Positions 1,403 to 61,247 of a stretch of DNA of 64,000 nucleotides are shown here, piece by piece. Position 1 is the stretch's first letter, and the number at the start of each line of letters is the position of its first letter. Source of the stretch: an uncultured Candidatus Saccharibacteria bacterium (GTDB lineage Bacteria > Patescibacteriota > Saccharimonadia > Saccharimonadales > Saccharimonadaceae). The notes below the pieces were generated by a model. It saw only the letters and a program-made list of their open reading frames with translations, made no database searches and was not told the origin of the DNA. The DNA is taken from contig CAVVEW010000001.1 in assembly GCA_963747455.1 (NCBI GenBank), forward strand, positions 32,005-96,004, given 5' to 3'. Position numbers and translations under genes: made by a program.

Positions 1403-4102
1403 TTATTTCCACTTATCCTTAAACGTCGGATTCGTAACACTAATACTTCCGCCGAGTATGGTAGCCAGCTTTTTCATCTGCTCAACTTGGCGTGACTCAA
1501 GTTTAGCTCCGACATCTTTATCGTTTGCCGCTTCACTCATGGCGTCAACGAATCGCTGCTTTGCTTGAGGTGAAAGCGCGGTAAGAGTGGCAATGGCACT
1601 TGGGTCTGTTGCCCATTCGTTCATTTCATCGACATCCATACCACCAAGGTATTGGCCGTTTACTTTCGACCCCTTGGCGTCACCCTCGAGATCGCGTCTA
1701 ATTCGTTGATCTCTTGTCATCGTGAGCTGGCCATTTTCTAGCATTCCTCGGTCCGTTCCACTTAATGATTTTGGCATAAGCGGACTGCCGGCGAACGTAC
1801 GGTTGAGGTCACGCTGCAGTCGGACTACTGTTGCTTTTTGTGTTTCTGTCGCCCCGGGCGCCTGGGCGTCTGCACCCATTTGAACAAGATCTTCAACTAG
1901 ATCCTGCGTCGATTTTGCATTAGCAACTTCTTTAAAGCGCCTAAGAGCGGCAACTCTCTCATGATCCTTTAGGTTTGAATCATTTATTCTGATCATAAGT
2001 TCGTCTTTTGTACGCCCAGCTTTTTGCTCAAAGACCTGAGCGGCCTTAACGTCTTTCTCGAACTCATCTTCCTTTGCTTGAAGGGCGTATGACTGCACGA
2101 GCCCGCCAAGCTCCTTGTCGCCAGCTGCAAGTTTATTCGCGTATGCTACATCCGAACTTGCTCGATCGGCAACATAGTTACGCTCCCCTGCTTCGGCTGC
2201 TAGCTTAGCGTATCTATCTTTTTGCTCGCCCGTAATTCTATTGGCAGAGCCAATGCCGGCGACCCATGCTCGAGCTTTGCGCCTGCGACTGTGTGCGTCG
2301 CCGTATCTACTTCCGCCGCGCTCTCCATTCAGGATTTCTTGAGCTTTTGTAGCTTGGTTTCCACTTCGGAGGTTTTGTCGACGTTCGCTGTACCGGGCGC
2401 TCGCTTTTTTGGCGCGATCGAGCGGTCCGCGGTTTGGATTGTTGGTAAAACCGGCAATCTTGCCCATAATATTACTACTGGCACGCATAACACTGATTAC
2501 CAAGAACGCAGGTATTGCAAGTATTACAAGTGAAGCAACATAGAGGATACCACTAGTTGTCGTACTACGAATAATCTCTGAGGCGAGTTGCCCGGCACCA
2601 AAGAGTAGCGAGATAGTCGGAAACAATAAAAGCATCGCAAAAAATAACTTACGCCACTTAGTGAACCAGCTCTCCGTATTTGGAAGCAGATACGCCACAA
2701 ACGCAATGGTGAAAGGATAACGAGCATAATAATGATCGCTTGACGAGCAATTAAGAGGAATATAACTGTTAAAAATGCCATCAGTGCTGCAATCGCCCCA
2801 GGTATAAGTAGTGCTAGTGCGCCAAAAAATCCATACGATCCAACGGTTACGGCTGCTGTTCCAACCGCGAAAGCACAACCCCCCCAGCCAACAGCCACCC
2901 TGTGACTTCCGACCATGCGTTCAGATTATTATCTGCGCCATCAGCTACGATATTACCAAGCTGTACATCAAGAATGTTGTATATCGAGGTGCCTATGAGA
3001 TTTGATACATCGATGGCTAGGGCTGCAATCCAAAAAGACGCATTAACTAGAATTGCCGCAAGAATGAGCCGGGGAACCATCCGTTTGATACCATAATTGC
3101 TGAGCATTACTTTTTCGCCCCTCCTACCATCTGCGAGTAGATGATTATGAGAAATGCGACGATAAATAATACGTTAGCAAGGTTGCGCACATCCTTCCAG
3201 ATGCGGTAGGCCTCTGCATTTTTCCCTCCGAAGGATTGGTCGAAAACATCGACGAGTCCACTACGAGAAATTCTTTGATGATACCATATAAACTATCGTT
3301 TAATTTCGACATAAACGGCCACGGCTGGACAGACGATCCACCCGACTCCATCAATCTTGCAATCCTGTCGCACCTCTTCGCTGCAGGTTCCATCGGCGTT
3401 GTACGTCCCGCCACCATCTTCGCAGTCTGTTTAAGTTTGGTTTGATAGCTGCATCAAGTGTGGTGCCCCTTGTTTTTTGGCTTCATCCTCGACATTTTGC
3501 ATGGTTTGAAGTATAGTCCGATACGACTCGGTTCGTTTATTCGCTATACATCTAGCGACTGACATCGATGTTAATATCAGGAAATGTAAAGGTCGAACTT
3601 CCTTCATAGCCATTTTCATAAAACGCATTCATACACGTCGTCACCTGACTCTTCAGGATAGATTTACACTCATTTGCAATCTTTACATCTGAAGCGGTAT
3701 TGCTCGCCGGTCGACAAAATTTGTCGGCGAGCGCGGTATAGTAGATGTTTGTCACAGTAGAGGCCGCGGCAGCCTGGAGGGTTCTGGTTGTTGGCGGATA
3801 CGTCGACACAAGTGACTTTATAGCTCGGAGTGTACCACCGGGATTAGTGAGGTCACCCGTCGGGCTCGTACTAAATTTCGGGGTACACACTTCGTTACAA
3901 CTCTTGTCGTAGTCATCAATCGCGACAATCTTACCATTATATTTGCTGTAACAGGCTTTTTTCTGATCGTATGTCAGTGCGCTTGCGGATGGGCTGAAGC
4001 CATATGCAGCAAGAGTGAGCTGCACATCAGTACCCCAGCCATCATTACAAGTAGAGAGCGTCGAATATTCGCTGTGCCCCCAGCAACACGCTTATGTATC
4101 AT
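1403..4102 (-). CDS. giant VirB6/TrbL-like polytopic T4SS protein, paralogue 1 (multiple frameshifts in this assembly)
   Basis: Pieces in three frames join into one protein. They are the signal peptide MIHKRVAGGTANIRRSLLVMMAGVLM (ATG 4102), ORF 3552-4025, the motif CKIDGVGWIVCP (about 3300-3345), and ORFs 3145-3417, 2847-3107, 2524-2916 and 1403-2878. TM block MVPRLILAAILVNASFWIAALAID and FTKWRKLFFAMLLLFP, then a long charged tail. Paralogue of 5229-8225. Frame breaks lie at T5 runs 3111-3115 and 3229-3233. Confidence 0.6.
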
Positions 4103-4201
4103 AGGTATATTTAACAGCATTTACGGAGAAAAAGCTAGGACAAAACAAAAACCCCCAGGTAATTAAATGGGGGTTATTGTGTTTCTCGCTACTGCGTAGT
4201 C

Positions 4202-5066
4202 TTATGGTCGCTTAAAAAGCGATCCCTGACTGTGGTACATGAGTGTACCGTTCTCGTTTACGACGTACGTCACCACGAGTGGGCCAGCTGGCGACTTGGA
4301 GCCGATAACGAGACTCGGCATTTCTTTGCCGTCGACTGTCACGGTGTCTTCGTATGTTGCTTCCCTGCCGTCGGCCATGACCATCACCTTTATGTCAGTA
4401 GAAGTATTGTACTGACCTGTCGAAGACGCACCTTTCTCATTGAACATCTTGATATTTTCGAGCCAGCGCGCGAGCAGATCGTTGCTCTGGGGGTCGGTGT
4501 CTTCAAAGAACCCGTAAGCTATCTTCGTCGCATCGCTTACACTCTATTCTGCCGTTTTTAGGCGACGGCTTCGGACCGCCATAACGTGATTAAGTATCCA
4601 TTGTGTATCCTGTTCAGCAACGGGCTTATCGTCGCTCGGGACGAGATAATCTATAAGGGCTGTTCTGGGTACATCTACAGGATTTTTGGCCGGAGCCATG
4701 ACGATCCCTGGTGCATAATTTTCATCGTCATAGAGAGCCTGAAGCTTATCGTTTAGCCAGGCCGCACGCTCAGGGGCGGGAAGTTTTTCAAAGTCGATAG
4801 ACCAATCTCTTTTTCGGTGTCTGCCGTTACTGCAACTTCTGACGGACTAGGAGGGTGTCGGCTCTGCGGATGGCGAGGCGGTACTAGGAGGGGTCTCTTG
4901 TGAAGTACTGTGGGAGATTTGGTAGGAGTGCCCTCACCTATAGCAGATGCAGGACCACCAAAGCAACCGCTTAAGTTGGCGGCAAGTGTACCCATGCCAA
5001 GAAAGATCGACGAGGTCTCCTTACTCTGTTCCAGAGTTCGTGTCGGTTAGCCATAATGATTTTCAT
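4202..5066 (-). CDS. lipoprotein of the T4SS-like operon (frameshifted)
   Basis: ATG 5066 (or 5054). MKIIMANRHELWNRVRRPRRS, then in a shifted frame FLGMGTLAANLSGC (lipobox LSGC), an S/T/P-rich linker, DWSIDFEKLPAPERAAWLNDKLQALYDDENYAPG.., and ORF 4202-4447 as the C-terminus. At least 3 frame changes. Confidence 0.4.
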
Positions 5067-31212: not shown

Positions 31213-31295
31213 TTTTTCCAATTAGAAGACCCCGCAGGGGTCTCCCACTCTCCTTTCGGATCGTAGTTGTCTTGCGGGGTAGTGCCTGAGCGAGC

Positions 31296-32129
31296 TCAGG
31301 CGGGTTGCAGTGCCTCGGGCATGACGCCAAGAGCCTGCAGGCGGAGGATGGTGAACGCGAAGCCACGACGGACCCACACCTCTGAGGTGTCGGAGCATTC
31401 TTGGCTGAACTGCGTTCGGGTCAGGCTCTTGAACTCAGCAGCACCGTCCTCGATGTCGAGACCGGAGCCCCATGCCACGTCGACGAGCTGCCCACCGAGC
31501 TGGATGTTCTCGTAGTGCCAGTAGTTGCGGTGGCCAGAGAACTGCCAGTAGCCGAGGATGAGCTCGACTTCCTTGGCGGGACGGTAGTGGCAGCCAGTCA
31601 TCTCTCCAAGATCGGCGAGTCTCACCCAGCCGCGCTGACCACGACGACGCTCCCGCGCCTTCATGCTCAGTCCTCGATGGGTTGCGAGAGGCTGTCGGGC
31701 GTAGTTGAGCCTGGGGATGTTGACTCCACGGCCCAGCTCGCCCTTGTGAATCATGCGGGCGTACTCCAGGGTCTTGCGACCACTGGGCTTGACCTGCCGT
31801 CTCGGCTGGTCGACATCCTCTTCTTCTGCGCAGACGTAGCCGAACGGCTTGTCGCTGATGTAGAGCACGTCGGGGGTGCTGTAGAGCGAGCTCAGTGTGA
31901 TGCTCTCGAGCTGGCTGTGGTCGATGCCGACGAGCCAACTGTAGTAGCCGGGGATGAGCGTACGCTCCATGACCCACATGCCGTTCGGTACGACGAAGGG
32001 GGTCTTTTCGATCACCTCATCAGCGCCAGTGTATGTACGGGGCTTCAGGCCGGACTTAATGTCCGGGTCGAGCACCCACTTCTTCTTCGTGAACGTCATT
32101 CCCTCGGGGTTGTCGGTCACTTGAACCAT
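31296..32129 (-). CDS. GC-rich orphan protein, 277 aa
   Basis: Intact ORF with RBS GGAG. Line 31621-31680 is 41/60 G+C. No family recognised. About 120-nt leader behind cassette promoter c. Confidence 0.5.
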   Translation of the reverse strand: MVQVTDNPEGMTFTKKKWVLDPDIKSGLKPRTYTGADEVIEKTPFVVPNGMWVMERTLIPGYYSWLVGIDHSQLESITLSSLYSTPDVLYISDKPFGYVCAEEEDVDQPRRQVKPSGRKTLEYARMIHKGELGRGVNIPRLNYARQPLATHRGLSMKARERRRGQRGWVRLADLGEMTGCHYRPAKEVELILGYWQFSGHRNYWHYENIQLGGQLVDVAWGSGLDIEDGAAEFKSLTRTQFSQECSDTSEVWVRRGFAFTILRLQALGVMPEALQPA

Positions 32130-45786: not shown

Positions 45787-45832
45787 TCCTGATATAAAAA
45801 TAACTCACAGTATATGTGAGTGTGGTGGGTGG

Positions 45833-45865
45833 CCGGACGAGAGAGCGACGTGCTCTCTCGTCCGG
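45833..45865 (-). terminator. 14-bp GC-rich hairpin terminating the GC-rich islet genes
   Basis: CCGGACGAGAGAGC gacgt GCTCTCTCGTCCGG. A second hairpin CTCACA-gtatat-TGTGAG and a T-run follow on the minus strand. Confidence 0.6.
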
Positions 45866-45880
45866 CGTGCACCCGGTGGA

Positions 45881-46282
45881 TCAGGCGGTCTGGGCGTCGA
45901 CGCGGGATGCGACGACGATGTAGCCGATCTCGTTGTCCTTGCAGAACTGCACGAACGCCTCGTAGATCTTCGTCTTCGTGCGGATGCAGAGGCTGGCCGG
46001 CACGGTGCTGTCACCGTAGGCCAGGGCGTAGATGTAGTCGAACACGAGCACGTCGTGCTCGGGGTTCGCCCAGCCCTCCTCGGCCTGCATGGCCTTCACG
46101 ATGTCGCCGAAGGCCTCGATCTGACCGGGCGTCAGCGGCGCGTCCTTGATGACGATGGTCTTGCCGGCCGTGTCCATCTTGGCAGCGCTACGGTTGCCCT
46201 TCTTGAAGGGCTTGCGCCCACGGCGGGTGGACTTCTTGGCCTTGGCCAGGCTCTTCGTGGCCATCTCGGTGTTAGCGGTCAT
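45881..46282 (-). CDS. GC-rich orphan protein, 133 aa, Lys/Arg-rich N-terminal tail
   Basis: GGAAGGA then ATG 46282. MTANTEMATKSLAKAKKSTRRGRKPFKKGNRSAAK.. plus a globular C-terminal domain. Line 46081-46140 is 42/60 G+C, against 15/60 in flanking line 46321-46380. Confidence 0.5.
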   Translation of the reverse strand: MTANTEMATKSLAKAKKSTRRGRKPFKKGNRSAAKMDTAGKTIVIKDAPLTPGQIEAFGDIVKAMQAEEGWANPEHDVLVFDYIYALAYGDSTVPASLCIRTKTKIYEAFVQFCKDNEIGYIVVASRVDAQTA

Positions 46283-46332
46283 GGCAGGGATCCTTCCGGG
46301 TGCTAATCGCCGGGTGCGATTATGTATATATA

Positions 46333-46363
46333 ATATTACTACAAATAGCAAGAAAAGTCAATA
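46333..46363 (-). promoter_or_regulatory. sigma70-type promoter, conserved cassette copy d
   Basis: Minus strand reads TATTGACTTTTCTTGCTATTTGTAGTAATAT. -35 at 46356-46361, 17-nt spacer, -10 at 46333-46338. Confidence 0.5.
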
Positions 46364-46453
46364 CTCCAGAAAAGGAAACAGGCTCACCGACGGAGCTCTA
46401 GCTGATGGATCGAATCCATCGGCAAGCCTGTTTCCGTACGGTGAGCCGTTGGC

Positions 46454-46672
46454 TCAGGACTGCTGGCCGATGCGCGCCTTCTCGGCGCGCTTCGCCTCGC
46501 GCTCTTCGTGCTTGGCGAGTCGCCTCTTGATCTCACCAGCTGACTGGCTGACCATGAGGACGACACCGATGCAAACCACGACGGTGCCAAGTCGGTCGAA
46601 CTCCAGTCCGGCGCGGGCCAGGGCCCAGAGGAACAGCATGGCGCCGATGGTACGAGTGATCATTACTGCCAA
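46454..46672 (-). CDS. GC-rich small membrane protein, 72 aa
   Basis: MAVMITRTIGAMLFLWALARAGLEFDRLGTVVVCIGVVLMVSQ (two hydrophobic helices) plus a basic tail EIKRRLAKHEEREAKRAEKAR. Confidence 0.4.
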   Translation of the reverse strand: MAVMITRTIGAMLFLWALARAGLEFDRLGTVVVCIGVVLMVSQSAGEIKRRLAKHEEREAKRAEKARIGQQS

Positions 46673-47088: not shown

Positions 47089-49510
47089 ATGGACGGAATC
47101 CATGTGGTACATCGCGACGGCACCCGCGTACCATTTGACGCCAACAAGATCAACCTGGCACTTGTAAAAGCAAGTGAAGGCCTTCCTGATCAGATCAGCA
47201 AGGTAGTACAGGTTGCGACAGAGCTCCAGTTGACACTGTTTGACGGTATCACGACGGAACAGCTCGACGAGGCAGTCATCCAGACAGCGCTACAGAATAT
47301 CAAGGACGACCCTGATTTCGACAAGATCGCAGCGCGCCTACTACTAAAGAATATCTATAAGAACATTCTCGGTGATTTCGATACAAAAGCAGAGCTCAAA
47401 AAGCTCCATGCCCAGAAGTTTCCAAGCTATATCAAGAACGCAGTCGCTGATGGTTTGCTCGACAAGCGCATGAACGACGGTCGATATGACCTCAAGAAGC
47501 TCGCTGCTGCTCTGGAACCAGAGCACGACGAGCTATTTAAATATATCGGTGTGGTAACGAACAAAAACCGTTACGCACTCCGCAAAAACTCTGGCGCTCC
47601 ACTCGAGACGCCACAGTTTACCCACATGCGCATCGCTATGGGACTGGCATACAACGAAGAAGACCCAACCGCAGCGGCACTCGAGTTTTACGACCACATG
47701 GCCAAGCTCGAATACGTCACAGGTGGTTCAACTCGTGTCAACGCCGGCGGCGCATTCCCGCAACTCAGTAACTGTTTCCTCATGGAAGTCCAAGACGACA
47801 TGGAATCGATCGCAAAATCGGTTCGCGACACGATGTGGATCGCCAAGGGTACGGGTGGTATTGGTATCACTATGACCAAACTCCGTGCAGCAGGCAGCCC
47901 TGTTCAAGACGACCAACACCGAGTCAACGGGCCCAATTCCATTTATGAAGATGATCGACTCTGCGCTCTTTGCTGTCAGCCGCAAAGGCAAGAAAGCAGG
48001 CGCAGCAGCGATGTATCTCGAAAACTGGCACCTAAACTTTCCTCAATTTCTGGATCTCCGCCAAAACTCTGGCGACCCATACTTGCGTACTCGTATCATG
48101 AACACCGCCGTCTATATTTCGGACGAATTCATGAAACGCGTCGAAGCTGACAAAGATTGGTACCTATTTGACCCGGCGGAAGTATCTGACTTACCTGAGC
48201 TATATGGCGAGGAATTTTCAAAGCGTTACAACGAATACGTAAAACTCGCCGAAGCTGGCAAAATGAAGGAATTCACCTCACTCCCTGCTCGCCAGCAATT
48301 CCGACAAATCCTGACCACACTCCAGGCGACCAGCCACCCATGGCTCACATGGAAGGATACGATCAACGTTCGTGCACTCAACAACAACACCGGCACGATT
48401 CACTGTTCGAACCTCTGTACTGAGATCACACTGCCTCAAGACGAAAAGAACGTTTCTGTCTGTAACCTCATCAGCATCAACTTGAGCCAACACCTCAACG
48501 ACGACCTGAGTTTTGACTACGAGCGTATGGAAAAGAGTGTACGTGCGGCAACCCGCCAGCTCGACAACCTCGTCGACATCACCAACACGCCGATTCCAGA
48601 GGCAATGCACTCAAACTCAGCCAACCGCGCAATCGGCCTCGGCCTGATGGGCTTTACCGATGTCCTCGAACGACGCAACCACAGTTACGACAGCAAGGAA
48701 TCGTTTGATCTCATCGACGAAGTCGTCGAGTTCATCAGCTACCACGCTATCGACGAATCAGCAGAGCTCGCAAAGACTCGCGGCAGCTACGACACCTTCA
48801 AGGGAAGTGGCTGGAGCAATGGCTTGCTCCCAATCGACACGCTCGACGAACTCGCCGCATCACGCAAGACAAAGGTCAATATCACCCGCAAGCACAAACT
48901 CGACTGGGACGTCCTGCGCAAAAAGACCAAAAAGGGTATGCGAAACGCAACACTCATGGCGATTGCACCGACAGCAAACATCGGTCTCGTTGCTGGCACG
49001 ACGCCAGGCCTCGACCCACAATTTGCACAGATCTTTAGCCGAAGCACACTCAGTGGTAAATTTCTCGAAGTCAACGTCAACCTAGTAAACACACTCAAGG
49101 AAGCTGGCCTGTGGGACAAGGTAAAAGATGAAGTGCTTTCCCGCCAAGGTGATATCCAAGATATCGACGTCATTCCACAAGACATCAAAGACGTCTTCAA
49201 GACAAGTTTCCAGCTCAGCCCGTATGCCTTCATCGAAGTGGCAGCCCGAGCACAAAAGTATGTCGACCAAGCAATCAGCCGCAACATGTACCTCGATACC
49301 CGAAACATCGACGACTACATCGAGATTTATACCGAAGCATGGAGGCGCGGCCTCAAAACTACTTACTATCTGCACGTGAAACCACGACACCAAGCTGAAC
49401 AGTCAACCACTCATGTCAACAAGACTGAAGAGATGGCAAAAAGCTCTGGTGGTGCGAAACGATCTGGGTTTGGATTTGCAAAGAAACAATCGGTGGGAGG
49501 TGATGCATGA
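47089..49510 (+). CDS. nrdA: ribonucleoside-diphosphate reductase alpha subunit, class I with ATP-cone (frameshift near 47905)
   Basis: ATP-cone VVHRDGTRVPFDANKINLAL. ..NCFLMEVQDDMESI..GGIGITMTKLRAAGSPV / KTTNTESTGPIPFMKM..CSNLCTEITL.. joins ORFs 47089-48150 and 47885-49510. Confidence 0.9.
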
Positions 49511-50303: not shown

Positions 50304-51387
50304 ATGGCAGGAATATTAGGCAGCGGTATCCAAGACGGATTACTGCTCAAGCCAATCCACTACCCGTGGGCATGGAGCTGTACGACCAAGCAGTCGCAAA
50401 CACGTGGTTTCCAAACGAAATCCAGCTCGGGCAAGACCTGAGCTGACTGGAAGAAGATGACCGACGAAGAGCGCTACGCGGTCGAATTCCTCATGGGCTA
50501 TTTCAACCCAAATGAGCTGCTCGTCAACAAAGCACTCGCATTTGGCGTCTACCCATACGTAAACGCAGCAGAATGTCACCTCTACCTCGCAAAGCAAATG
50601 TGGGAAGAGGCAAACCACTGTATGGCGTTTGAGTACGTGCTCGAAACATTCCCGATCGACCGTGAAAAGGCATATGCCTCGCACGTCGACGAGCCAACTA
50701 TGGCGCGCAAAGAAGAGTTCGAGATGAAAGCTATCAAGCGCATGACCGAGAAGCACCTCGACATCACGACGACCGAAGGTAAAAAGGACTTCATCCGCAA
50801 CCTGATCGCCTACAACATCATCCTCGAAGGTATCTGGTTTTACTCTGGCTTCATGGTTGCACTCAGCTTCCGCCAGCGAAACCTACTGCGCAACTTTGGC
50901 TCAGCTGATCGACTGGGTCGTCCGAGACGAAAGTCTTCACCTCAAGTTCGGTATCAACCTGATTCTGACGACACTGGAAGAAAACGAAGACCTCCAGACA
51001 GAAGAGTTCGCAAACGAGATCAAGCAGACTATTCTCGACGCTGTGGAGATGGAAGAAGAATACAACAAGGCGATGCTGCCAAAGGGTATCCTTGGTCTCA
51101 ACGCCGACTACGTCAACCAGTACGTGAAGTACCTGACCGACCGCCGCCTCGAAGAGCTCGGTTTTGAGCCACACTACAAGGTTTCAAACCCAGCCAAGTG
51201 GATGGCGACAGCAAACGACACGCTCGAGCTGGTCAACTTCTTTGAAAGCACCAATACGAGCTACGAAGTCAACGCTGGCAACAGTGCCAGTACACTCAAG
51301 CCTCAGTCACCAAGTGGTGCACGCGGCGAAACCGATCCAGACGTAAGTATTCTGGAAAACGAAGCTGCCGAAAACGGCGACAAGTAG
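50304..51387 (+). CDS. nrdB: ribonucleoside-diphosphate reductase beta subunit (at least 3 frameshifts)
   Basis: AAGGAGA then ATG 50304. MAGILGSGIQDGLLLKPIHYPWAW / ELYDQAVANTWFPNEIQL.. / ORF 50457-51167 (..EEANHCMAFEY..ILEGIWFYSGF..) / ORF 50857-51387 (..RDESLHLKFG..). The ferritin-like di-iron motifs are present. Confidence 0.85.
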
Positions 51388-52175: not shown

Positions 52176-53374
52176 TGCTCGGCATGTCTTAACACTGCTC
52201 GGTCCGGCCTTTGTCGCGGCTGTTGCGTATGTCGATCCAGGTAAATTTCGCTGCCAACATCTCTGCTGGTGCAAGATACGGCTACGCCCTCCTTTGGGTG
52301 CTCGTCGTCGCCAATCTCATGGCGATGGTCGTGCAGTATCTCAGTGCAAAGATTGGAATTGTCACCGGCAAAAGTTTGCCGCAGCTCATCGCCGAAAACT
52401 TGGGCAGAAAGAGTCGCATCACCTACTGGTTGCAAGCAGAATTCGTTGCTATCGCTACCGACATTGCCGAAGTTATCGGTGGGGCGCTTGCACTCAATAT
52501 CCTCTTTGGCATACCGATGCTACTCGGCGCGGTGATTACCGGCCTAGTTTCACTCGGTCTGCTGCTGATTTACAACAAGCGCGACACGCGTATATTTGAG
52601 CGCGTCATCATCGGCATGCTCTTGATTATCCCGATTGGATTTTTCGTCGGGCTATTCATCGTACCACCAGATCCTGTGGGCGTGCTCTCGGGGCTAGTCC
52701 CGACGCTCAAGAGCGCAGATATGCTACTACTTGCGACGGCTATGCTCGGTGCGACAGTCATGCCGCATGTGGTGTACCTGCACTCGGCGCTGGCGCGAGA
52801 CCGTCATGGCAAAGCAGCAGATGGGCGGCTCAAGTATTTGCTAAAAGCGACCAAGATCGACGTTGGTGTCGCCATGCTTGTAGCGGGCACTGTCAATATC
52901 GCCATGCTACTGCTTGCAGCGAGCGCCCTGAGCGGCCTGCCAGAATCAGATAGTCTGCAGTCTATCTTTGCCGCGATCGAGAGTAATGTCAGCTCTATCG
53001 TCGCATGGTTATTTGGGCTGAGCTTGCTGGCATCGGGCTTTGCATCGACAGCGGTGGGGGCACAAGCAGGCGCAGTGATCATGAAAGACATGATCGAGCG
53101 CAAGATTCCGATACTGCTGCGGCGTACCATTACTATCATCCCTGCGATTATCATCATCGGTTTTGGTGTCGATGCTACCATGGCACTCATCCTCAGCCAG
53201 GTGGCGCTGAGCTTTGGCATACCGTTCGCACTCGTCCCACTCATCTTTGTGACTCGTAGCGAGCGTATCATGGGTAAAAACCGCAACCCATCGTGGCTGA
53301 CATGGCTCCTCACGGCTATCGTAGCCGTCATTAGCGTACTCAATCTCGCACTCATAGTCTTAAGCTTGCAGTAA
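52165..53374 (+). CDS. mntH: Nramp-family divalent metal (Mn2+/Fe2+) transporter MntH (frameshift at 52243-52248)
   Basis: MARNARHVLTLLGPAFVAAVAYVDPGN / FAANISAGARYGYALLWV.. (DPGN motif restored by removing one base of the AAATTT run). MPHVVYLHS motif. 11-12 TM helices in ORF 52211-53374. Confidence 0.8.
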
Positions 53375-53400: not shown

Positions 53401-56205
53401 ATGTTTGGGATGGTGATGCGAGCATCCATAGCCATAGCCGCTGTCGTAGCGGCGTTTCTCGTATTGCCTGTGCATGCTGGCGAAGCTTCTTTGTGGCGTC
53501 AAAACCAGACCTTCAGTACAGAATCATCCAACGACGTACGTCAGGATATAGATTGTTATGAAGTCACCGCAGAGGTGGTTCAGCAATCGGGCGCTACAAA
53601 GCAGCAAAAGGTATGTGAACAACGCGGCAAGAATCTTACGCTCGGTAGGTACACCGATACCGATAACAAAAAGTACTACGCTGTAAAAATCGGCTTTGAC
53701 CAGTACTACCGCAATATCGCAAATGTGAACGCATACGACACGCGAATCTATCTACGCCCGAGTGACGATGCACTCATCGTCAAGTTTCCAGGTGCGCAGA
53801 AAGTACACATCCCATCTTTCAGTATTTATCGACTAGACAACGGAGGCATAGAATCCAAGCTGTCTAATGGCCATGGCACTATAGAATATGAGCTCGATTT
53901 TTATAAACGTACAACCCTCATGGGCCTCGTGCAGCCAGACGGCAGCGCATACTACACTAAACAAGACGGTTACGCTTTTTCGCAAAATCGCCAGTATCTC
54001 TTGACGTGGCACAGTGATCATTCAGTCGTTGTCACCAACACCATCACAGGTGATATGCGAATCATATCAGCGCAGTATCTCTCGGGAAAAATCGATGCGA
54101 CGATTTCGGATGACGGTCGGTATGCGGTACTGGGGACGGCGGGTTTTGTCTTCGATACGCAAAATTGCGGCGAGACGTACGACTTTCGGATGCATAACAT
54201 ACGCGAGTCAAATGGATTGCTCCGAACGGCATGTCCCATGGCGTATATATGGGATAAGATATATAGTGTCGCGAACATTACTTATATGGGCGCGAACTTT
54301 TATTTTGTCGACGACAACACTGCGCTGGCATTTGACTTCCCCCGTGAAAACCCACGCATACACGGCCTGATAAAAACTTCAGCCTACAATCCAACTCGTC
54401 TCGACTACCTTGCTCTGGGTGATTCGTATTCGAGCGGGGAAGGGGATACGGAAATCATTAACGGCGTGAGTTACTACACTCCTGTTACGGATGGTAATCG
54501 CGGGTGCCATCTCAGTACACGTTCATATCCGTTTAGGTTGAGCATTCATGGAGTATTCAAGACGATAAGATGCAGTCGGTGGCCTGCTCTGGCGCCAAGA
54601 TCAATCCTGATTATACCGGGGAACTTTCTACATATCTTGGGCAAAATGACAGGCTCAATAATGTTTCAGATGAACGCCGAGGAGAACTTCAGGGACAGGC
54701 ACTAAATGCTTTCATCCCTGGATATCTTCCACAACTCGAATTCGTCAAAAAATACCAACCAAAAATCGTTACGCTTACCGGTGGGGGAAACGATGTTGGT
54801 TTTGCAGAAATCTTAATAGACTGCGCATCTGACGTTTCTCGAAATGTAGTGTACATAAACAGTTGTGAATATATCGAGGGTGGTTCGCTACATAGCACTC
54901 TCAATGCATCGATTGACTCACAAAGAGCCGCGATGAGCGATTTGATCAAGCGTATCCATCAGATATCACCGAGCACGAAAGTGGTCCTTGTTGGTTATCC
55001 ATCATTTATCGCTGGCTCAGACGGCTCCTGCGCCCTGAACTCCGGCATATTAGACAACGATGAGCGAGATATGATTAATACTGCTGTGCATCGGATGAAC
55101 GGTGTCCTCAAAGATGCAGCGACAGAGGCGGGTGCTGCGTTTGTAGATATAGAAGATAGCCTCAATGGGGGGAGGCTATGCGAGGGGTCAGAGTACATGA
55201 CGGGATTTTTTGAGCTCCAGCTGAAATATTCGGACAGGGGGTATCTTTGATCAGAATCATTTTCATCCGAACGCCTCTGGCCATGAAAAGATGGCAAATG
55301 CCATTATCACATCAGGAGCTTATGAGACACCACCACCATTGCCTCAGGCGGTGAATAGCATCAGAGCTAACCTCGCAATCAACAGCGAGTTTACAGATTC
55401 CTCTGTCACCTTGAGTATATCTACTCAGCTGGGAATAGATACAGCCACACAAACATTTGCAGATGGCTCGTCTATCACCACAGCAATTTTTTCTGAAGAG
55501 ACGCCCCTCGGTACCTATGAAGCAGATTCGAATGGCGCGCTACATACAATTGTAGACGTAGCTGACGTTACCACCGGGTAGGCATGTCGTAGTGCTACGC
55601 GGGCAGACACCATCTGGTGACCCAATCACGCTGTACCAGTTCATCACTATCAATGACACTGAAGCTGACGCCGACGGAGATGGTATACCTGACGCATCTG
55701 ATCCATGTAACTTCATCGATAGTTGGTACGATGAACAGTCGGGCGTGGGTATTTGTGAAGCCGTTGCGCAGGATGAACCCACAGATATATCGATTCCGCC
55801 AGTTGTAGCCCCGCCCGTTACGGATACGAAGCTAGAGCTTCCAGAGACGCGAATTGAGATCGAGGCGCCACAAGTACTGGTCCCGCAAAAATCCGCGAGC
55901 ATAGAGGAGGGTCGGCAAGCAGTAACACCTTGGTTCAGCTCAACGCCCGCACAACATGGGTAGGCCGAGATATTTCAAGTTTGCAGACAGATGCCAACGC
56001 TGACATTATTGAGCGCAGTGATGTCTCATCGGTTCTTGGTGAGTCAACCGAGAAACCGCTCACGACAGTAGATGATCTAGCAAGCGCCGATCAGAATATA
56101 TCTTCTTGGGTATGGGCTATAATAGGAGGAAGTATTGTAATAGGGGGAGTAGTTCTATATGCCAAATCACAAAAAACCCGAAAAAGCTTCGACCATAAAA
56201 AATAG
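53401..56205 (+). CDS. large surface protein with SGNH/GDSL hydrolase domain and C-terminal TM anchor (at least 4 frameshifts)
   Basis: Signal peptide MFGMVMRASIAIAAVVAAFLVLPVHA. SGNH block I LALGDSYSSGEG (about 54410), block III TLTGGGNDVGF, block V HPNASGH (about 55270). DADGDGIPDASDPC is a thrombospondin-type-3-like motif (about 55670). TM WVWAIIGGSIVIGGVVLYA plus a basic tail. Pieces lie in ORFs 53401-54705, 54570-55250, 55291-55581, 55592-55963 and 55930-56205. Confidence 0.6.
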
Positions 56206-56509
56206 ACCTTATAAAGTAGCGCTACTCGCTGTAAGTCTTGTCGCATTGTTAGTGCTGTTCGATGTGAGCACAATTGGAGGAAATATCTACGGCTTTATGT
56301 GACATGGATTGATTGCGGGCGCTGGCCTGTTGAGACTGTAGGTCACGTTGCTGGTGAAGTACCCTACTACCATACGGCAGATGGATTCGCACTCGTACTC
56401 AGGGGTGAGCGAAATATTCTGCACACCCCTCGAAGCCGAAAAAGCAGGCTACTCTGCGGATTCAAAAGTCTATCGCTACCCAAATCTCAATGCAGAAAAG
56501 AAGCAATAG
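56159..56509 (+). CDS. small membrane-anchored hypothetical protein (frameshifted)
   Basis: ATG 56159 gives MPNHKKPEKASTIKNRPYKVALLAVSLVALLVLFDVS... It continues in ORF 56299-56514 and ends ..EAEKAGYSADSKVYRYPNLNAEKKQ in a third frame. Terminator hairpin AACTCCGAG...CTCGGAGTT at about 56530-56566. Confidence 0.25.
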
Positions 56510-56650
56510 ATTAGTTAGAGCAAATTCGAAACTCCGAGATAACTCCGATTTAACTCGGAGTTGCATTTGCGCTATTTACAGATGAAAAAAGCCACGTTTC
56601 GATAGCGGTGGCGGAGCGGTGGGGAAGTGGTGGATAGAAACTAACATTAT

Positions 56651-57424
56651 CTACAGTGGGTCTGCGTAGAGTAAGTCGGCAATATTCACACCAGTTAATG
56701 TGGCGAATACACTAAATCCGGGTGATCTGTTGACTTCCATCAGACGCAACTCGCCAGTGGCGGTTCGTGCGACATCGAGTCCGACTACGTCGAGATTTGT
56801 CGCCCTCCGGTAAATCATCGTAGCGAATGTCACTTCATCTTGCGTTAGCTCTCGCGCACTAATAGCCTGTGTCTTTTGACCGTTAGTCATGCTCCTTCTG
56901 ACTGCACCTGCAGGGTAGACTCGTCCGCAAACGACATAGATTCTTAGCTCCTCACTAATATCGAGCATTTCCTGTGTAATCCAGTCATTTGCCAAACCAT
57001 GAACGTCTCGAATATCTCTCGTCACTCCTTCACCTCTTGAGCTCAGCCTCTTTTTGTAAATCATTTTCCGGTCGTCGGTACTCTCAACTTCATCTAAAAG
57101 CTGCGTTCTGGGCACAAACTCTGAAAACATCTGATACTGTTTCCATTTGTCTTCAAAGTTAATTATCTTTTCTACAGTATCCATTTCGTCGATAACTTTG
57201 ATGTTAGGGTTTTTCTCCTTGCTCTGAGCAACTATACGACTGATTTCATTACGGAAATTTTGAGGTTGCAGCTTGGGTTCACTAAAATGACTTCGTATAT
57301 AAAGGCTTTCATACGGATGCTGAATATTTAGCTCTACGTCTTGGTCTAGTATAAGTACATCTGCATGCTTGCGAAGCAGTTCAATAGACGATTCAGCGCT
57401 GACTGTGACTACGAGATGCTTCAT
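56651..57424 (-). CDS. ATP-grasp (RimK-like) ligase
   Basis: 257 aa. FEDKWKQYQMF, KKRLSSRGEGV, ELRIYVVCGRV and GLDVARTATGELRLMEVNRSPGF follow the ATP-grasp motif order. Confidence 0.5.
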   Translation of the reverse strand: MKHLVVTVSAESSIELLRKHADVLILDQDVELNIQHPYESLYIRSHFSEPKLQPQNFRNEISRIVAQSKEKNPNIKVIDEMDTVEKIINFEDKWKQYQMFSEFVPRTQLLDEVESTDDRKMIYKKRLSSRGEGVTRDIRDVHGLANDWITQEMLDISEELRIYVVCGRVYPAGAVRRSMTNGQKTQAISARELTQDEVTFATMIYRRATNLDVVGLDVARTATGELRLMEVNRSPGFSVFATLTGVNIADLLYADPL

Positions 57425-57536
57425 TACCTAATCTTAGCAAATAGTTCTGTATCCACGTCGTTTTGTATACAAATAAAGTCCAAATGCTGTCTGGTAGGGA
57501 AGTGGTGCCAAAAAAAATAAGTTCAAAAATGAGTGA

Positions 57537-57574
57537 GGGGTCGGGGCGGACGCTGGTGCGTCCACCCCGACCCC
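57537..57574 (-). terminator. GC-rich terminator of the purN-like/purD-fragment islet
   Basis: GGGGTCGGGGCGGACGC tggt GCGTCCACCCCGACCCC (one bulge), followed on the minus strand by a T-rich tract. Confidence 0.65.
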
Positions 57575-57598
57575 GGTGGTAGTTCACTCGTTCGCCAC

Positions 57599-57736
57599 TC
57601 AGGCGGCGATGTCGGTCTGGTAGTGCATACCGGTGAACCGGATGAGACTGACGACCTTGTAGGCCAGGTCACGAGCCTTCTCGAGCGCGCACTCGCGACC
57701 GCCGCCTCCGACGACTGCAATCGTTTCCGGTTTCAT
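57599..57736 (-). CDS. 45-aa ORF resembling the N-terminus of PurD (GAR synthetase); probable gene fragment
   Basis: GGAAGGGA then ATG 57736. MKPETIAVVGGGGRECALEKARDLAYKV.. compared with E. coli PurD MKVLVIGNGGREHALAWKA... Stops after 45 codons. GC-rich. Below the ORF-track cutoff. Confidence 0.4.
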   Translation of the reverse strand: MKPETIAVVGGGGRECALEKARDLAYKVVSLIRFTGMHYQTDIAA

Positions 57737-57767
57737 GCTCTGTCCCTTCCGTTGAGGTAGATGGTTC

Positions 57768-58247
57768 TCAGGTCAAGCCTGTCTCCGAGGATGTCGGCTC
57801 TAGCGCCTTGATGTCTTTCGGGTCGATCTTACCGCCCAGAATCTTGGACAGCGTGTAGAGGTCGACGGTGACGGCGCGCTCGCCAGGTCGCGGCGAGTTG
57901 TCGAACTGCCTTTCGACGACGTGCAGCATCCAGCCGCTGTAGTACTGGAAGATGACCGGGTCGAAGGGCATTGCGCCTGAGGACAACAAGGCTACGTCGA
58001 TACCGTGGCCGGTGAGGACGTTGGCGATGTTCCTGCTGAACTGCCAGCAGTTCCACCCCTCTCGTGGGTAGCCATAGTGGCTACGTCTGAGGATTACGGT
58101 TTTGAGGCCGGCCTCTTTGGCTATGGCGTAGTCGGAGTTGGTGCGCTCTCCGATGACAACATCGATCCTCACTCCACGTTCGAGCAAGTTCTCCACCAGT
58201 GTGTCGTCGTAGACGAGCACTGCGAGACTCATCTCTCTGTCGCTCAC
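57768..58247 (-). CDS. GC-rich PurN-like (formyltransferase N-domain-like) protein, catalytically degenerate and truncated
   Basis: GGAG then GTG 58247. DVALLSSGAMPFDPVIFQYYSGWMLHVVER aligns with PurN DVVVLAGFMRILSPAFVSHYAGRLLNIHPS, but the N-x-H catalytic pair is replaced and the C-terminal third is missing. Confidence 0.35.
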   Translation of the reverse strand: MSDREMSLAVLVYDDTLVENLLERGVRIDVVIGERTNSDYAIAKEAGLKTVILRRSHYGYPREGWNCWQFSRNIANVLTGHGIDVALLSSGAMPFDPVIFQYYSGWMLHVVERQFDNSPRPGERAVTVDLYTLSKILGGKIDPKDIKALEPTSSETGLT

Positions 58248-58339
58248 GGTTTTCTCCGTTTCTGAATTGTGATGAACTAGCGTTTATACCACAGCGTCAG
58301 TATAGGCTATCTACTCGAGAGGAAAAAGCACGAGTGCAA

Positions 58340-58922
58340 TTACTGGCGAATAGTCTTCAGCGCACCCGCATACGCAACCAAGTCACCGAGCATGTGCTGC
58401 AAGGCACCGTTTGGTCCGTGAGGGTTTGCGGCGAGGTCAGGGCTGAGCGTGCCGTCTTCGCTAAATGCCAGGCTGGCATACGGAGTTGATATAGACGGTA
58501 CGTGGTACGGTGACAGCCAGGGTGCCGGCTGCTACAGAGCGGAGGGTATGGACTGCCTGTGCGCCACCAGTCGAGCCGTGGGCGATGATACCGATGGGCT
58601 TTCGCTCTAGTTCGTAGGCGACGTAGTCGAACGCGTTTTTGACTACTGCGGGCAGGGTACGGTTGTACTCTGGCGTGACGACGATCAGCGCGTCCATCTC
58701 GGCGAGCTTGTCGAGCCAGGCTTTTACGACACCAGTAGTTTTGCGCTCTGGGTTGTATTGCGGCGAGATCGCTTCGTCAAAAAAGGGCAGGGGATAGTCG
58801 GCGAGGTCGAGTAGTTCTACCTCGACATCGTCAAGTTGCTGGGCTGCTGCAAGCGCCCATTTTGCTGGTCGATCTGTGCTGCGACCTTGTCGTGTGCTGC
58901 CAATAATAATACCAAGTTTCAT
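58340..58922 (-). CDS. NADPH-dependent FMN reductase (frameshift near 58470)
   Basis: MKLGIIIGSTRQGRSTDRPAKW...VVTPEYNRTLPAVVKNAFD... ORF 58461-58922 continues in another frame as ..YASLAFSEDGTLSPDLAANPHGPNGALQHMLGDLVAYAGALKTIRQ to TAA 58340-58342. Confidence 0.7.
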
Positions 58923-59361: not shown

Positions 59362-59433
59362 ACAAAACGAAACCCCGCCACGACCCGGAGGCCGCAGGGG
59401 GGCTTCGACGGGTGGACGGGGAACAACAGCGAG

Positions 59434-59721
59434 CTACTCGCCAACCCACTTCTGGAGCATCTTCTCTCCGTACAGCTTGTACGCTCCGAAGAGCGAAGCT
59501 GCCATCAAGATCGCTCCGATGATCAGGCCGGCCATCGCTAGGAGGCTGGCCTTGAGGGTCGTAGCCGGTGGCATGAAATCTGCCATTGCCCATGAGTAGG
59601 CCATTGTGACTGCGATTGCTGGCAAGCAGCAAGCTGCTGCGATGATGAAGATCTTCACGAAAATCATCACGGCGACTGCCAACCTTTTGATTGCCGCATG
59701 TAGCGGCTCGTACAAACCCAT
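59434..59721 (-). CDS. small membrane protein, 95 aa
   Basis: Three predicted TM helices. AGGAGATGG then ATG 59721. TTGTTT-17-TATAAT upstream. GC-rich hairpin region 59365-59425 downstream. Confidence 0.45.
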   Translation of the reverse strand: MGLYEPLHAAIKRLAVAVMIFVKIFIIAAACCLPAIAVTMAYSWAMADFMPPATTLKASLLAMAGLIIGAILMAASLFGAYKLYGEKMLQKWVGE

Positions 59722-59810
59722 GAGACCATCTCCTTGTGCTGTAGGTGCTGGGTTATATATATTATAACATACTTTTAAATATAAAACAATATGTATCTGT
59801 AGTATGTATG

Positions 59811-61172
59811 CTATGTACGATGACTCGTTGCTGTCTTGTTTTCGATCCCAATCATCGATACTATTCCACCGATAGCTAGTAGCGCGGCGGTGACGAGTAC
59901 TGCGTTGTGAAAGCCGGCGACGTCTAGCTGGACGCCCGTAACTATACCGATAAGTGCGATACCGATCAGACCTGCAACACGAGCAACCATATTGTTCACG
60001 GCCGAGGCGATACCGGCATCGCGAGAGGGAACAGAAGCGAGCACTGCCGAGGTAAGTGGTGAAACAGTGATCGCAAGACCCAGTCCAAAGAGCAAGATCC
60101 CAGGTAGTAGCTGCGTCCAGTACAGCACGCGTTCATCGACCATCACCATAGATACATATCCGGCGGCAGCGAGGAGCGGGCCAAAGCCCATAAACCACCG
60201 TGGCCCATGTGTGGCGGCAAGTTTGCCAAAGCGCGGCGAGAGAAAAAACATGATGATAGTGACGGGTATGATTGCCATACCTGATTGTATGGCTGTGTAG
60301 TTACCGACTTGTTGCACAAAGATGACGAGCAAAAACGTCGCGATACTGAGGCCTGCATAGATGCTGAACGTGGCGGCATTTCCGACAGAAAAATTGCGAA
60401 TGCGAAAGAGTTCTGGTGGCAACATCGGGTGTGCCTGCCGGCGTTCATAGAGCAAAAACGTCGCCAGTAGTATCGTGCCAAACACGATTGCGCTGATGAT
60501 TAATGGATCATCCCAACCATTTCGATTTTGCTCGATGAGTCCATAGACGACGCTCGCGAGGCCAAAGGTACAGAGAAGCGCGCCGATGGTATCGATTTTT
60601 ACCCGGTCTTTTGTGACATCCTCACGCTGCAAGCGGGTGAGGAGCCAGAGTGTCACTGCGATTGGTACGATATTTATAGCAAATATTAGTCGCCACGAAC
60701 TGATATCGACGAAAAATCCACCGAGAAGAGGGCCAAACAGAAACGCAATACCTGTCCACGCGGTCCATGTGCCGATTGCTTTTCCCTGAGCTACGCCAGA
60801 AAATGCTGAGATGATGAGTGCCAATGAACTTGGTACGAGTAGCGCGCCGCCGATACCTTGTAGTGCGCGAGATGCAATCAGCAGCTCGCCTGTCGGCGCA
60901 ACGGCACAGAGCAGGGAACCGACGAGGAATATAACGAGCCCAATTCGCAAGATAAATTGCCTGCCAAAGAGATCCGAAAGTGAGCCGGCGAGGAGTATCA
61001 GCGAGCCGAGGGTGATGAGATAGGCATCGACGACCCATTGCTGCAGGGGTAGGCCTCCGCCGAAATCATTTGTAATTGCAGGTAGGGCAACGTTGACGAC
61101 CGAGCCATCGAGAAACGCCACGAACGATGCCAAGATGGCGATAGTCAGTACTAGTTTTTGATCTCGCGTCAT
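59811..61172 (-). CDS. MFS transporter, DHA2 (EmrB/QacA-like) drug:H+ antiporter family
   Basis: 453 aa, about 14 TM helices. LDGSVVNVALPAI and LSDLFGRQFILRIGL motifs. Confidence 0.8.
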   Translation of the reverse strand: MTRDQKLVLTIAILASFVAFLDGSVVNVALPAITNDFGGGLPLQQWVVDAYLITLGSLILLAGSLSDLFGRQFILRIGLVIFLVGSLLCAVAPTGELLIASRALQGIGGALLVPSSLALIISAFSGVAQGKAIGTWTAWTGIAFLFGPLLGGFFVDISSWRLIFAINIVPIAVTLWLLTRLQREDVTKDRVKIDTIGALLCTFGLASVVYGLIEQNRNGWDDPLIISAIVFGTILLATFLLYERRQAHPMLPPELFRIRNFSVGNAATFSIYAGLSIATFLLVIFVQQVGNYTAIQSGMAIIPVTIIMFFLSPRFGKLAATHGPRWFMGFGPLLAAAGYVSMVMVDERVLYWTQLLPGILLFGLGLAITVSPLTSAVLASVPSRDAGIASAVNNMVARVAGLIGIALIGIVTGVQLDVAGFHNAVLVTAALLAIGGIVSMIGIENKTATSHRT

Positions 61173-61247
61173 GGGGCTATTTTATACCCAATATCTATCG
61201 AGCGATAGCAACTTGCCTCAACCTAGCCCGCACGCTATACTAGCCTC

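Follow-up and report, generated by a model that had tools for sequence, protein, structure and literature searches.

A GC-rich islet with remnants of purN and purD in a Saccharibacteria genome, probably left by horizontal gene transfer

Saccharibacteria rely on their hosts for nucleotides. For soil members of the group, an absence of de novo base synthesis has been reported (PMC6031116). How, then, did two open reading frames (ORFs) resembling the purine-synthesis genes purN and purD come to lie side by side in such a genome, and could their products still do anything there? The two ORFs are found in a stretch of 64,000 nucleotides (hereafter the window) from an uncultured Candidatus Saccharibacteria bacterium (GenBank assembly GCA_963747455.1, contig CAVVEW010000001.1, positions 32,005 to 96,004), for which a first-pass annotation, made from the letters alone, had proposed a captured piece of a high-GC purine operon. 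Both ORFs, of 159 and 45 amino acids (aa), are present as minus-strand reading frames and, together with a hairpin that follows them, form what we call the islet (Table 1; all positions are those of the window). The 64-kb window was found to contain neither PurL, PurC or PurH nor another copy of PurN or PurD, in agreement with the earlier statement that it holds no other purine gene. In our view, the islet is probably the non-functional remnant of a purN-purD segment acquired horizontally from a higher-GC genome.

The relationship of the 159-aa ORF to PurN, the glycinamide ribonucleotide (GAR) transformylase, is not visible to routine searches. The ORF has no match to PF00551 or to the NCBIfam PurN model even at E <= 10, so that the curated profile threshold is not reached; it has no phmmer match among PDB sequences, and a word-indexed search of 5.8 billion clusters retrieves the ORF itself alone. 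When 1.84 billion representatives were searched exhaustively with phmmer, nine matches reached E <= 0.001, one of them being the ORF itself. Six others align at 30-35% identity over ORF residues ~6-130 (E 1e-7 to 2.5e-4), and all six of these proteins carry the PF00551 Formyl_trans_N domain (E 1e-22 to 2e-37); the remaining two are long repeat proteins without PF00551. We then used a custom hidden Markov model (HMM) of 195 positions, built from 88 PurN sequences of the clade to which the six matches belong. Positions 2-102 of this model align with ORF residues 7-109 at 33 bits and, among the six-frame ORF segments of the window (at least 30 aa), the 159-aa ORF is its sole match (E 5e-10). Sequence comparison identifies residues 7-109 as a remote homologue of the N-terminal, Rossmann-like subdomain of PurN (PDB 3auf, 3dcj, 1cde), and the 'YGYP..GW' insert of Acidimicrobiia-type PurNs is present in the ORF as well. 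The similarity to the PurN N-terminal domain claimed in the first-pass annotation is real, albeit remote.

The features on which PurN activity depends are gone. In Escherichia coli PurN, the catalytic residues are an Asn-x-His pair (N106/H108) and Asp144. The HMM alignment ends exactly at the catalytic Asn: the PurN motif G-R-x-L-N-x-H-P reads G-W-M-L-H-V-V-E in the ORF ('LNIHP' having become 'MLHVV'), with Asn replaced by His and His by Val. Near residue 10, the loop that binds the GAR phosphate, S-G-x-G-S/T (SG(T/S/K)G(S/T) in the homologues), has become YDDT(L). Model positions 103-195 of 195, including the Asp-bearing region, have no counterpart in any frame of the islet DNA. The loss of the catalytic Asn and His had been recognized from the outset, and the further loss had been put at the C-terminal third; it is larger, with about half of the protein missing and the phosphate loop lost too.

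In place of the second half of PurN, the ORF ends in a tail (residues 110-159) that has no Pfam match and whose local alignments to PurN C-terminal halves score no better than shuffles. Two candidate origins for this tail were rejected: a frameshifted or deleted PurN C-terminal half, since no frame gives a signal and alignments score as shuffles do, and the C-terminal end of whichever gene usually lies upstream of purD, for which no signal was found. Compared with PurN proteins of ~200 aa, the ORF differs in its unrelated 50-aa tail, in the lack of a Pfam match, of the phosphate loop, of the catalytic Asn/His and of the Asp-bearing C-terminal subdomain, and in its identity to any PurN of 19-35%.

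Structure prediction was uninformative when run on the single sequence (AlphaFold, predicted local distance difference test [pLDDT] of 40). When informed by a multiple sequence alignment, the AlphaFold2 model reached block-mean pLDDT values of ~74-93 over residues 1-110, and every one of its 20 best PDB matches is a GAR transformylase (E 1.6e-5 to 6e-4, ~103-114 residues superposed). Because the supplied alignment consisted of PurNs, this model is not independent support for the homology. Within the tail, pLDDT falls below 50 over residues 112-122 and 138-159, which are modelled as disordered.

The 45-aa ORF, which we refer to as mini-purD, preserves both ends of PurD (GAR synthetase) and nothing between them. 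Its residues 5-23 match GARS_N positions 2-20, and residues 16-44 match positions 62-90 of 92 in GARS_C (E 8.8e-5, under the gathering threshold because the matching piece is short) and positions 390-420 of 425 in TIGR00877; in the PDB, residues 3-15 and 388-414 of the PurD 2yw2 are matched. Residues 6-18 (IAVVGGGGRECAL) are identical to 54 PurD N-termini fetched from metagenomes at 9.1 of 13 positions on average, versus 2.4 of 13 for the in-register C-terminal segment of PurD, which rules out the possibility that mini-purD is a contiguous C-terminal piece. Identity between the last 27 residues and PurD C-termini from metagenomes is 50-68%. From these terminal matches and identities it follows that mini-purD is a purD with an in-frame deletion: as read from the alignments, the first ~18 and the last ~27 codons are fused in frame and ~375 codons are deleted. 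The N-terminal signature VVGGGGRE-AL lies in residues 1-18 and the C-terminal signature AY..V..I.F.GMHY.TDIA in the last 27, in the order of PurD and followed by the stop codon and the hairpin; the family's terminal signatures, G-x-GGREHA at the N-terminus and F-x-G-M-x-Y-R-x-DI at the C-terminus, are thereby represented. Unlike PurD, mini-purD lacks GARS_A completely, together with the larger part of GARS_N and two thirds of GARS_C; no GARS_A ATP-grasp domain was found in it, as expected from an ORF of only 45 aa, and the remainder of PurD was not found in other frames or in adjoining DNA.

The first-pass annotation had described this ORF as an N-terminal fragment with its own ribosome-binding site that stops early. 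The ribosome-binding site and the PurD-like start stand; the early stop does not, the end of the ORF being the PurD C-terminus fused in frame. Profile methods detect both genes in the islet, PurN with the custom HMM (33 bits) and PurD with GARS_N and GARS_C. A product of 45 residues cannot be an enzyme and, judging from the missing motifs and domains, neither islet product would be able to catalyse a step of purine synthesis.

Mini-purD is followed by a strong hairpin, as had been noted for positions 57537-57574. Its core there is a GC stem of 17 bp that starts 24 nt past the mini-purD stop, or 9 nt past it if the extended stem is counted, in which 57584-57589 pairs with 57531-57536 over another 6 bp (GAGUGA/UCACUC). 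A-UUUUU directly follows the extended stem and a second U-run comes after it, the U-runs lying in 57510-57529. The fold energy is -51.8 kcal/mol (z = -7.45), and 0 of 200 shuffles are equally stable. The hairpin, listed as inverted repeat I1, occurs once in the window, was not flagged by a simple consensus terminator scan and had no occurrence in the metagenomes searched. It is probably mini-purD's own terminator, as predicted from its stem and U-tract.

The islet also stands out in composition, as its description as foreign-looking had implied. Its GC content of 60.3% compares with a mean of 50.2% for the whole stretch, in which 1.1% of 711-bp segments are that high. GC content at third codon positions (GC3) is 0.80 in the 159-aa ORF versus 0.53 +/- 0.07 in 70 non-overlapping ORFs of the window, among which it is the top outlier at ~3.8 standard deviations; mini-purD has a GC3 of 0.76-0.78, and the range over the islet ORFs is 0.76-0.82, with sharp edges and AT-richer flanks (35% and 44% GC). 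Coding periodicity is uninterrupted inside both ORFs and includes the tail, where GC by codon position is 0.58/0.44/0.82. Because this high-GC periodicity fits the current frame, the tail is genuine coding sequence of high-GC origin rather than out-of-frame debris. The window contains further GC-rich patches, at 31231-31941 (62.7% GC) and 45821-46531 (61% GC), with ORFs on both strands that have no Pfam match; one frame, at 45820-46149, has a GC content of 0.91 at second codon positions, a value suggestive of low complexity or of an incorrect frame.

Comparison with related genomes places the islet in a block that is specific to this lineage. Contigs carrying homologues of the flavin mononucleotide (FMN) reductase gene upstream of the islet (FMN_red) are collinear with the window, with genes for ribonucleotide reductase (RNR), CYTH, Nramp and GDSL lipase, a small ORF, FMN_red and HxlR. 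Nucleotide identity to these relatives is ~68-82% over the conserved genes and ~80% over the FMN_red-HxlR pair. In the two nearest, a soil metagenome-assembled genome (MAG; GCA_035494435.1, here L001) and L002, FMN_red and a 115-aa ORF converge and their stops share 4 bp. At that junction the window has 1,830 additional bases (56510-58339), with homology resuming in 56408-56509 on one side and from 58340 on the other. Two further relatives (L003, L004), in which FMN_red likewise abuts the convergent ORF, have neither the ATP-grasp gene, which lies in the same block, nor the islet at the syntenic site, and three others (L005-L007) have unrelated genes after FMN_red, among them a 255-aa ORF that was considered as a relative of the ATP-grasp gene and found to be unrelated. 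Neither purN nor purD was found at the syntenic site in any of the seven related loci.

FMN_red itself does not belong to the islet. Its homologues, of 192-193 aa and 77-90% identity, carry Patescibacteria or Candidatus Saccharibacteria annotations, and although the gene looks GC-rich, its GC3 is unremarkable; on these grounds, the idea that it is part of the foreign segment was ruled out. A promoter-like site lies upstream of FMN_red at 58999-58971, and a terminator scan found no terminator between FMN_red and the islet.

Table 1. Features of the islet and of the surrounding DNA, in window coordinates.
Feature	Position	Strand	Basis or remark
Islet proper: purN-like ORF, mini-purD and hairpin	57537-58247	-	711 bp; 60.3% GC
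159-codon purN-like ORF	57768-58247	-	GTG start, GGAG upstream; alternative ATG at 58232 would give 154 aa
Homologue of the PurN N-terminal (Rossmann-like) subdomain, ORF residues 7-109	57921-58229	-	phmmer, custom HMM, AlphaFold model
50-aa tail, residues 110-159, and stop codon	57768-57920	-	No relative detected
Shine-Dalgarno-like GGAAGGGA, in 31-bp spacer, 6 nt 5' of mini-purD ATG	57743-57750	-	Read from sequence
45-codon mini-purD ORF	57599-57736	-	ORF call
Mini-purD codons 1-18, PurD N-terminus (MKPETIAVVGGGGRECAL)	57683-57736	-	GARS_N, PDB 2yw2, comparison of PurD N-termini
Mini-purD codons 19-45 and stop, extreme PurD C-terminus (EKARDLAYKVVSLIRFTGMHYQTDIAA)	57599-57682	-	GARS_C, TIGR00877, PDB 2yw2
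Intrinsic-terminator-like element, hairpin GGGGTCGGGG	57510-57589	-	Fold energy, inverted repeat I1
Native NAD(P)H-dependent FMN reductase, directly upstream	58340-58922	-	PF03358, E 2.6e-35
Spacer between FMN_red and purN-like ORF, 91 bp	58248-58338		44% GC
Low-GC stretch between islet and ATP-grasp gene, 112 bp	57425-57536		35% GC
RimK/R2K-type ATP-grasp gene, downstream	56651-57424	-	44% GC; PF14243, PF08443
Lineage-specific 1.83-kb block (ATP-grasp gene and islet)	56510-58339		Missing at the syntenic site in the closest relatives
Single-base insertion sites	47906-47934, 50896-50903, 52244-52257, 54516-55801, 58486-58488		Comparison with L001

Where might such a segment have come from? All six significant PurN matches come from metagenomes; the contigs of two have a GC content of 53-55% and also carry a bona fide purL or purC together with heme genes. 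When the alignment of the six was used to scan 185,579 species genomes, they fell into a PurN clade made up mainly of Acidimicrobiia and other Actinomycetota MAGs, with ~41-51% identity to the protein P0002; the 159-aa ORF is only 19-29% identical to members of the clade (tblastn), and beyond such remote PurNs it has no close relative among the 185,579 genomes. The same clade includes intact lone purN genes in two members of the candidate phyla radiation (CPR), the Patescibacteria MAG GW715_bin.47 (L010) and the Saccharibacteria MAG SRP133034_co1_63 (L037). Like the islet, they have no adjoining pur genes; unlike the 159-aa ORF, they encode full-length proteins (198-219 aa; PF00551 E 1.5e-30 to 2e-42), and the composition of the L010 gene is host-like. 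The ORF is 18.7% identical to the L010 protein and has no tblastn match in L037, and hence is no closer to them than to PurNs from outside the CPR. The L010 gene (4974-5570 of its contig) lies between an IMPDH/GMP-reductase-like gene and metK in a native-looking context of 42% GC, and that of L037 is at 3635-4294. Their occurrence suggests that CPR genomes have repeatedly acquired or retained PurN alone.

Searches of plasmid and phage collections, with both DNA and protein, returned no match to the islet, and no purD was found within 5 kb of purN at the Acidimicrobiia loci. A metagenome scan with the PurD C-terminal peptide retrieved 120 ordinary purD genes, of which 54 had enough upstream sequence for their neighbours to be read; purN lies directly upstream of purD in one of them (L206, on a contig of 38% GC), and its product is not similar to the 159-aa ORF. 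No mobility gene (integrase or transposase) was found in the 1.83-kb block, and no repeat flanks the islet. Sequence relationships are compatible with an Actinomycetota-type origin. The first-pass annotation had gone further and named an actinobacterial host as the obvious donor; this part of its proposal is not established, given the identity of 19-29% and the CPR members of the clade, whereas its idea of a captured and decaying fragment of high-GC purine genes remains the best reading.

It is the best reading because the ORFs derive from purN and purD, both are catalytically dead, their composition is foreign and relatives have no islet at the syntenic site. Homology, the lost motifs, the layout of the deletions, the missing islet in relatives, the anomalous base composition and the stability of the hairpin are observed; from them we infer the direction and source of the transfer, the lack of function and the co-transcription with FMN_red. 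More specifically, a purN-purD segment would have entered by horizontal transfer from a genome of roughly 60% GC or more and would have inserted where the convergent native FMN-reductase gene and small ORF meet, a variable spot that now also holds the ATP-grasp gene. Deletions would have gutted both genes, after arrival or earlier in the donor, leaving purN with its N-terminal subdomain alone and no substrate-binding or catalytic motif, and purD with its first ~18 and last ~27 codons in frame plus the hairpin, probably its own terminator. What is left may be co-transcribed from the FMN_red promoter, with transcripts ending at the imported hairpin.

How far the frames themselves can be trusted depends on the assembly. 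Compared with L001, single-base insertions split the RNR large and small subunit genes, Nramp, the GDSL lipase (three times) and FMN_red into overlapping ORFs, the break in FMN_red being a 1-nt insertion near 58486. Protein identity on both sides of the breaks is ~79-92% for the RNR subunits, Nramp and FMN_red, and lower in the lipase. Most likely, these insertions are assembly errors and not true pseudogenes, and the apparent FMN_red pseudogene is probably not real. Because the assembly carries such errors, arguments from the integrity of an ORF are weak.

Several observations weigh against a captured and decaying purN-purD segment. Both ORFs are open, are preceded by Shine-Dalgarno-like sequences and end at a terminator, and the clean high-GC periodicity of the 50-aa tail sits awkwardly with long neutral decay at 50% GC. 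Identity to any PurN is only 19-35% despite a GC3 of ~0.8; no donor emerged from genome, plasmid, phage and metagenome searches, and neither a mobility gene nor a flanking repeat was seen for the islet; purN rarely lies right next to purD (the single case among 54 loci); and with frequent single-base indels, frames and ORF ends are not fully reliable. A GC3 and a periodicity that speak for little neutral drift since arrival thus stand beside a PurN part that is remote from all sampled PurNs and has lost its functional motifs. The tension could be explained by an unsampled donor that already had a degenerate form, by divergence before transfer, by new constraint or by rapid decay. New constraint would point to repurposed small proteins, with the 159-aa ORF (and perhaps the 45-aa peptide) serving a non-catalytic, ligand-binding or regulatory role under the FMN-reductase promoter and kept by selection. 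The frame does stay open for 159 codons at 60% GC, which by our estimate has a ~0.6% chance in random sequence of that composition, its periodicity is continuous through the tail, a good GGAG ribosome-binding site precedes it, transcripts from FMN_red would meet no terminator before the islet and, behind it, a strong one, and the alignment-informed model predicts a confident N-terminal fold. However, this model depends on the PurN alignment supplied and leaves the tail disordered, every known functional PurN motif is lost, and the high GC3 may merely reflect recent transfer. Moreover, none of ~15 billion proteins is an orthologue of this singleton ORF, which hence shows no sign of conservation. 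We regard such repurposing as unlikely. A particular version of it, in which the ORF would be a catalytically dead PurN N-terminal subdomain with a new tail, obtained from a high-GC neighbour or host, still alive and co-expressed with FMN reductase, is improbable as well; if true, it would be a rare example of the reuse, by a CPR epibiont, of part of an otherwise unusable biosynthetic enzyme.

Two other explanations were considered. Reads of a high-GC community member might have been inserted chimerically into an error-prone assembly, and the ~seven single-base insertions in conserved genes do point to a noisy assembly, as the presence of the islet sequence in one contig only across public collections would also fit. 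Yet the flanks are collinear with relatives on both sides, so that two junctions would be required within ~0.8 kb; a chimeric read would bring a normal purN and purD instead of internally deleted genes that keep start, stop and terminator; and deletions of ~0.3 kb and 1.1 kb are beyond the reach of single-base errors. An artefact is for these reasons very unlikely. The islet might alternatively be inherited, the last vestige of a purine pathway of ancestral Saccharibacteria or Patescibacteria, an idea to which the intact lone PurN genes of L010, native-looking at 42% GC, and L037, both of the same PurN clade, lend some weight. Against vertical descent, the islet is missing at the syntenic site in seven of seven related loci, the flanking genes of the nearest overlap by 4 bp, GC3 is ~0.8 compared with ~0.53 for the genome, and the ORF is no closer to these two CPR proteins than to others. 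We hold it to be the least probable of the explanations considered. A horizontally acquired and decayed purN-purD segment is thus the reading we retain.

The ATP-grasp gene that shares the block is a separate, native-type acquisition, because of its Saccharibacteria family and low GC. Its homologues, at 50-60% identity, occur in Saccharimonadaceae and other Patescibacteria in varied contexts without adjoining pur genes, and it was ruled out as the missing middle of purD or as a functional partner since it is of the RimK/R2K family, native to Saccharibacteria and without pur neighbours. Some homologues (P0135, P0138) are fused to a NUDIX domain, and the gene at one locus (L092) is followed by genes for a NUDIX and a Ham1-like protein; this hints that the protein may be tied to nucleotide-related metabolism. 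A 15-nt direct repeat, 14 of 15 positions being identical (GGTGGGGAAGTGGTG at 56618-56632 and GGTAGGGAAGTGGTG at 57493-57507), brackets the gene. The chance expectation for such a repeat in the region is ~0.1 by our estimate, and it could be a scar left by recombination or insertion of the ATP-grasp gene. The gap that separates the ATP-grasp stop from the small convergent ORF contains an almost perfect inverted repeat of 16 nt (56530-56562; loop of 1 nt), which may be a bidirectional terminator. On the other side of the HxlR/FMN_red pair lies a second lineage-specific block (59362-61235), with a major facilitator superfamily transporter (59811-61172) and a 95-aa ORF, which is missing in L001 between HxlR and the next conserved gene. 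With gene gains on both sides of the pair, the neighbourhood is a hotspot for gene gain.

The islet is small evidence on genome dynamics, adding no capability and no purine-making ability to this genome. As a datable scrap of foreign purine-synthesis genes, it would illustrate how these reduced genomes acquire biosynthetic DNA from neighbours of higher GC, only to lose it by deletion rather than rebuild the pathway, and it marks the HxlR/FMN-reductase neighbourhood as a local hotspot of gain. If the donor could be traced to a co-occurring Actinomycetota population, the relic could be used as a marker of host association.

The islet is a new instance of a well-known feature, the remnant of a horizontally transferred gene in a reduced genome. 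Oral Saccharibacteria have reportedly acquired an arginine deiminase system. Like horizontally acquired genes of Saccharibacteria, the islet is lineage-specific, is atypical in composition, sits at a variable junction between genes and occurs in a genome that lacks the corresponding pathway. Unlike the working modules that Saccharibacteria have acquired, it would be inactive debris, and it bears no mobility signature.

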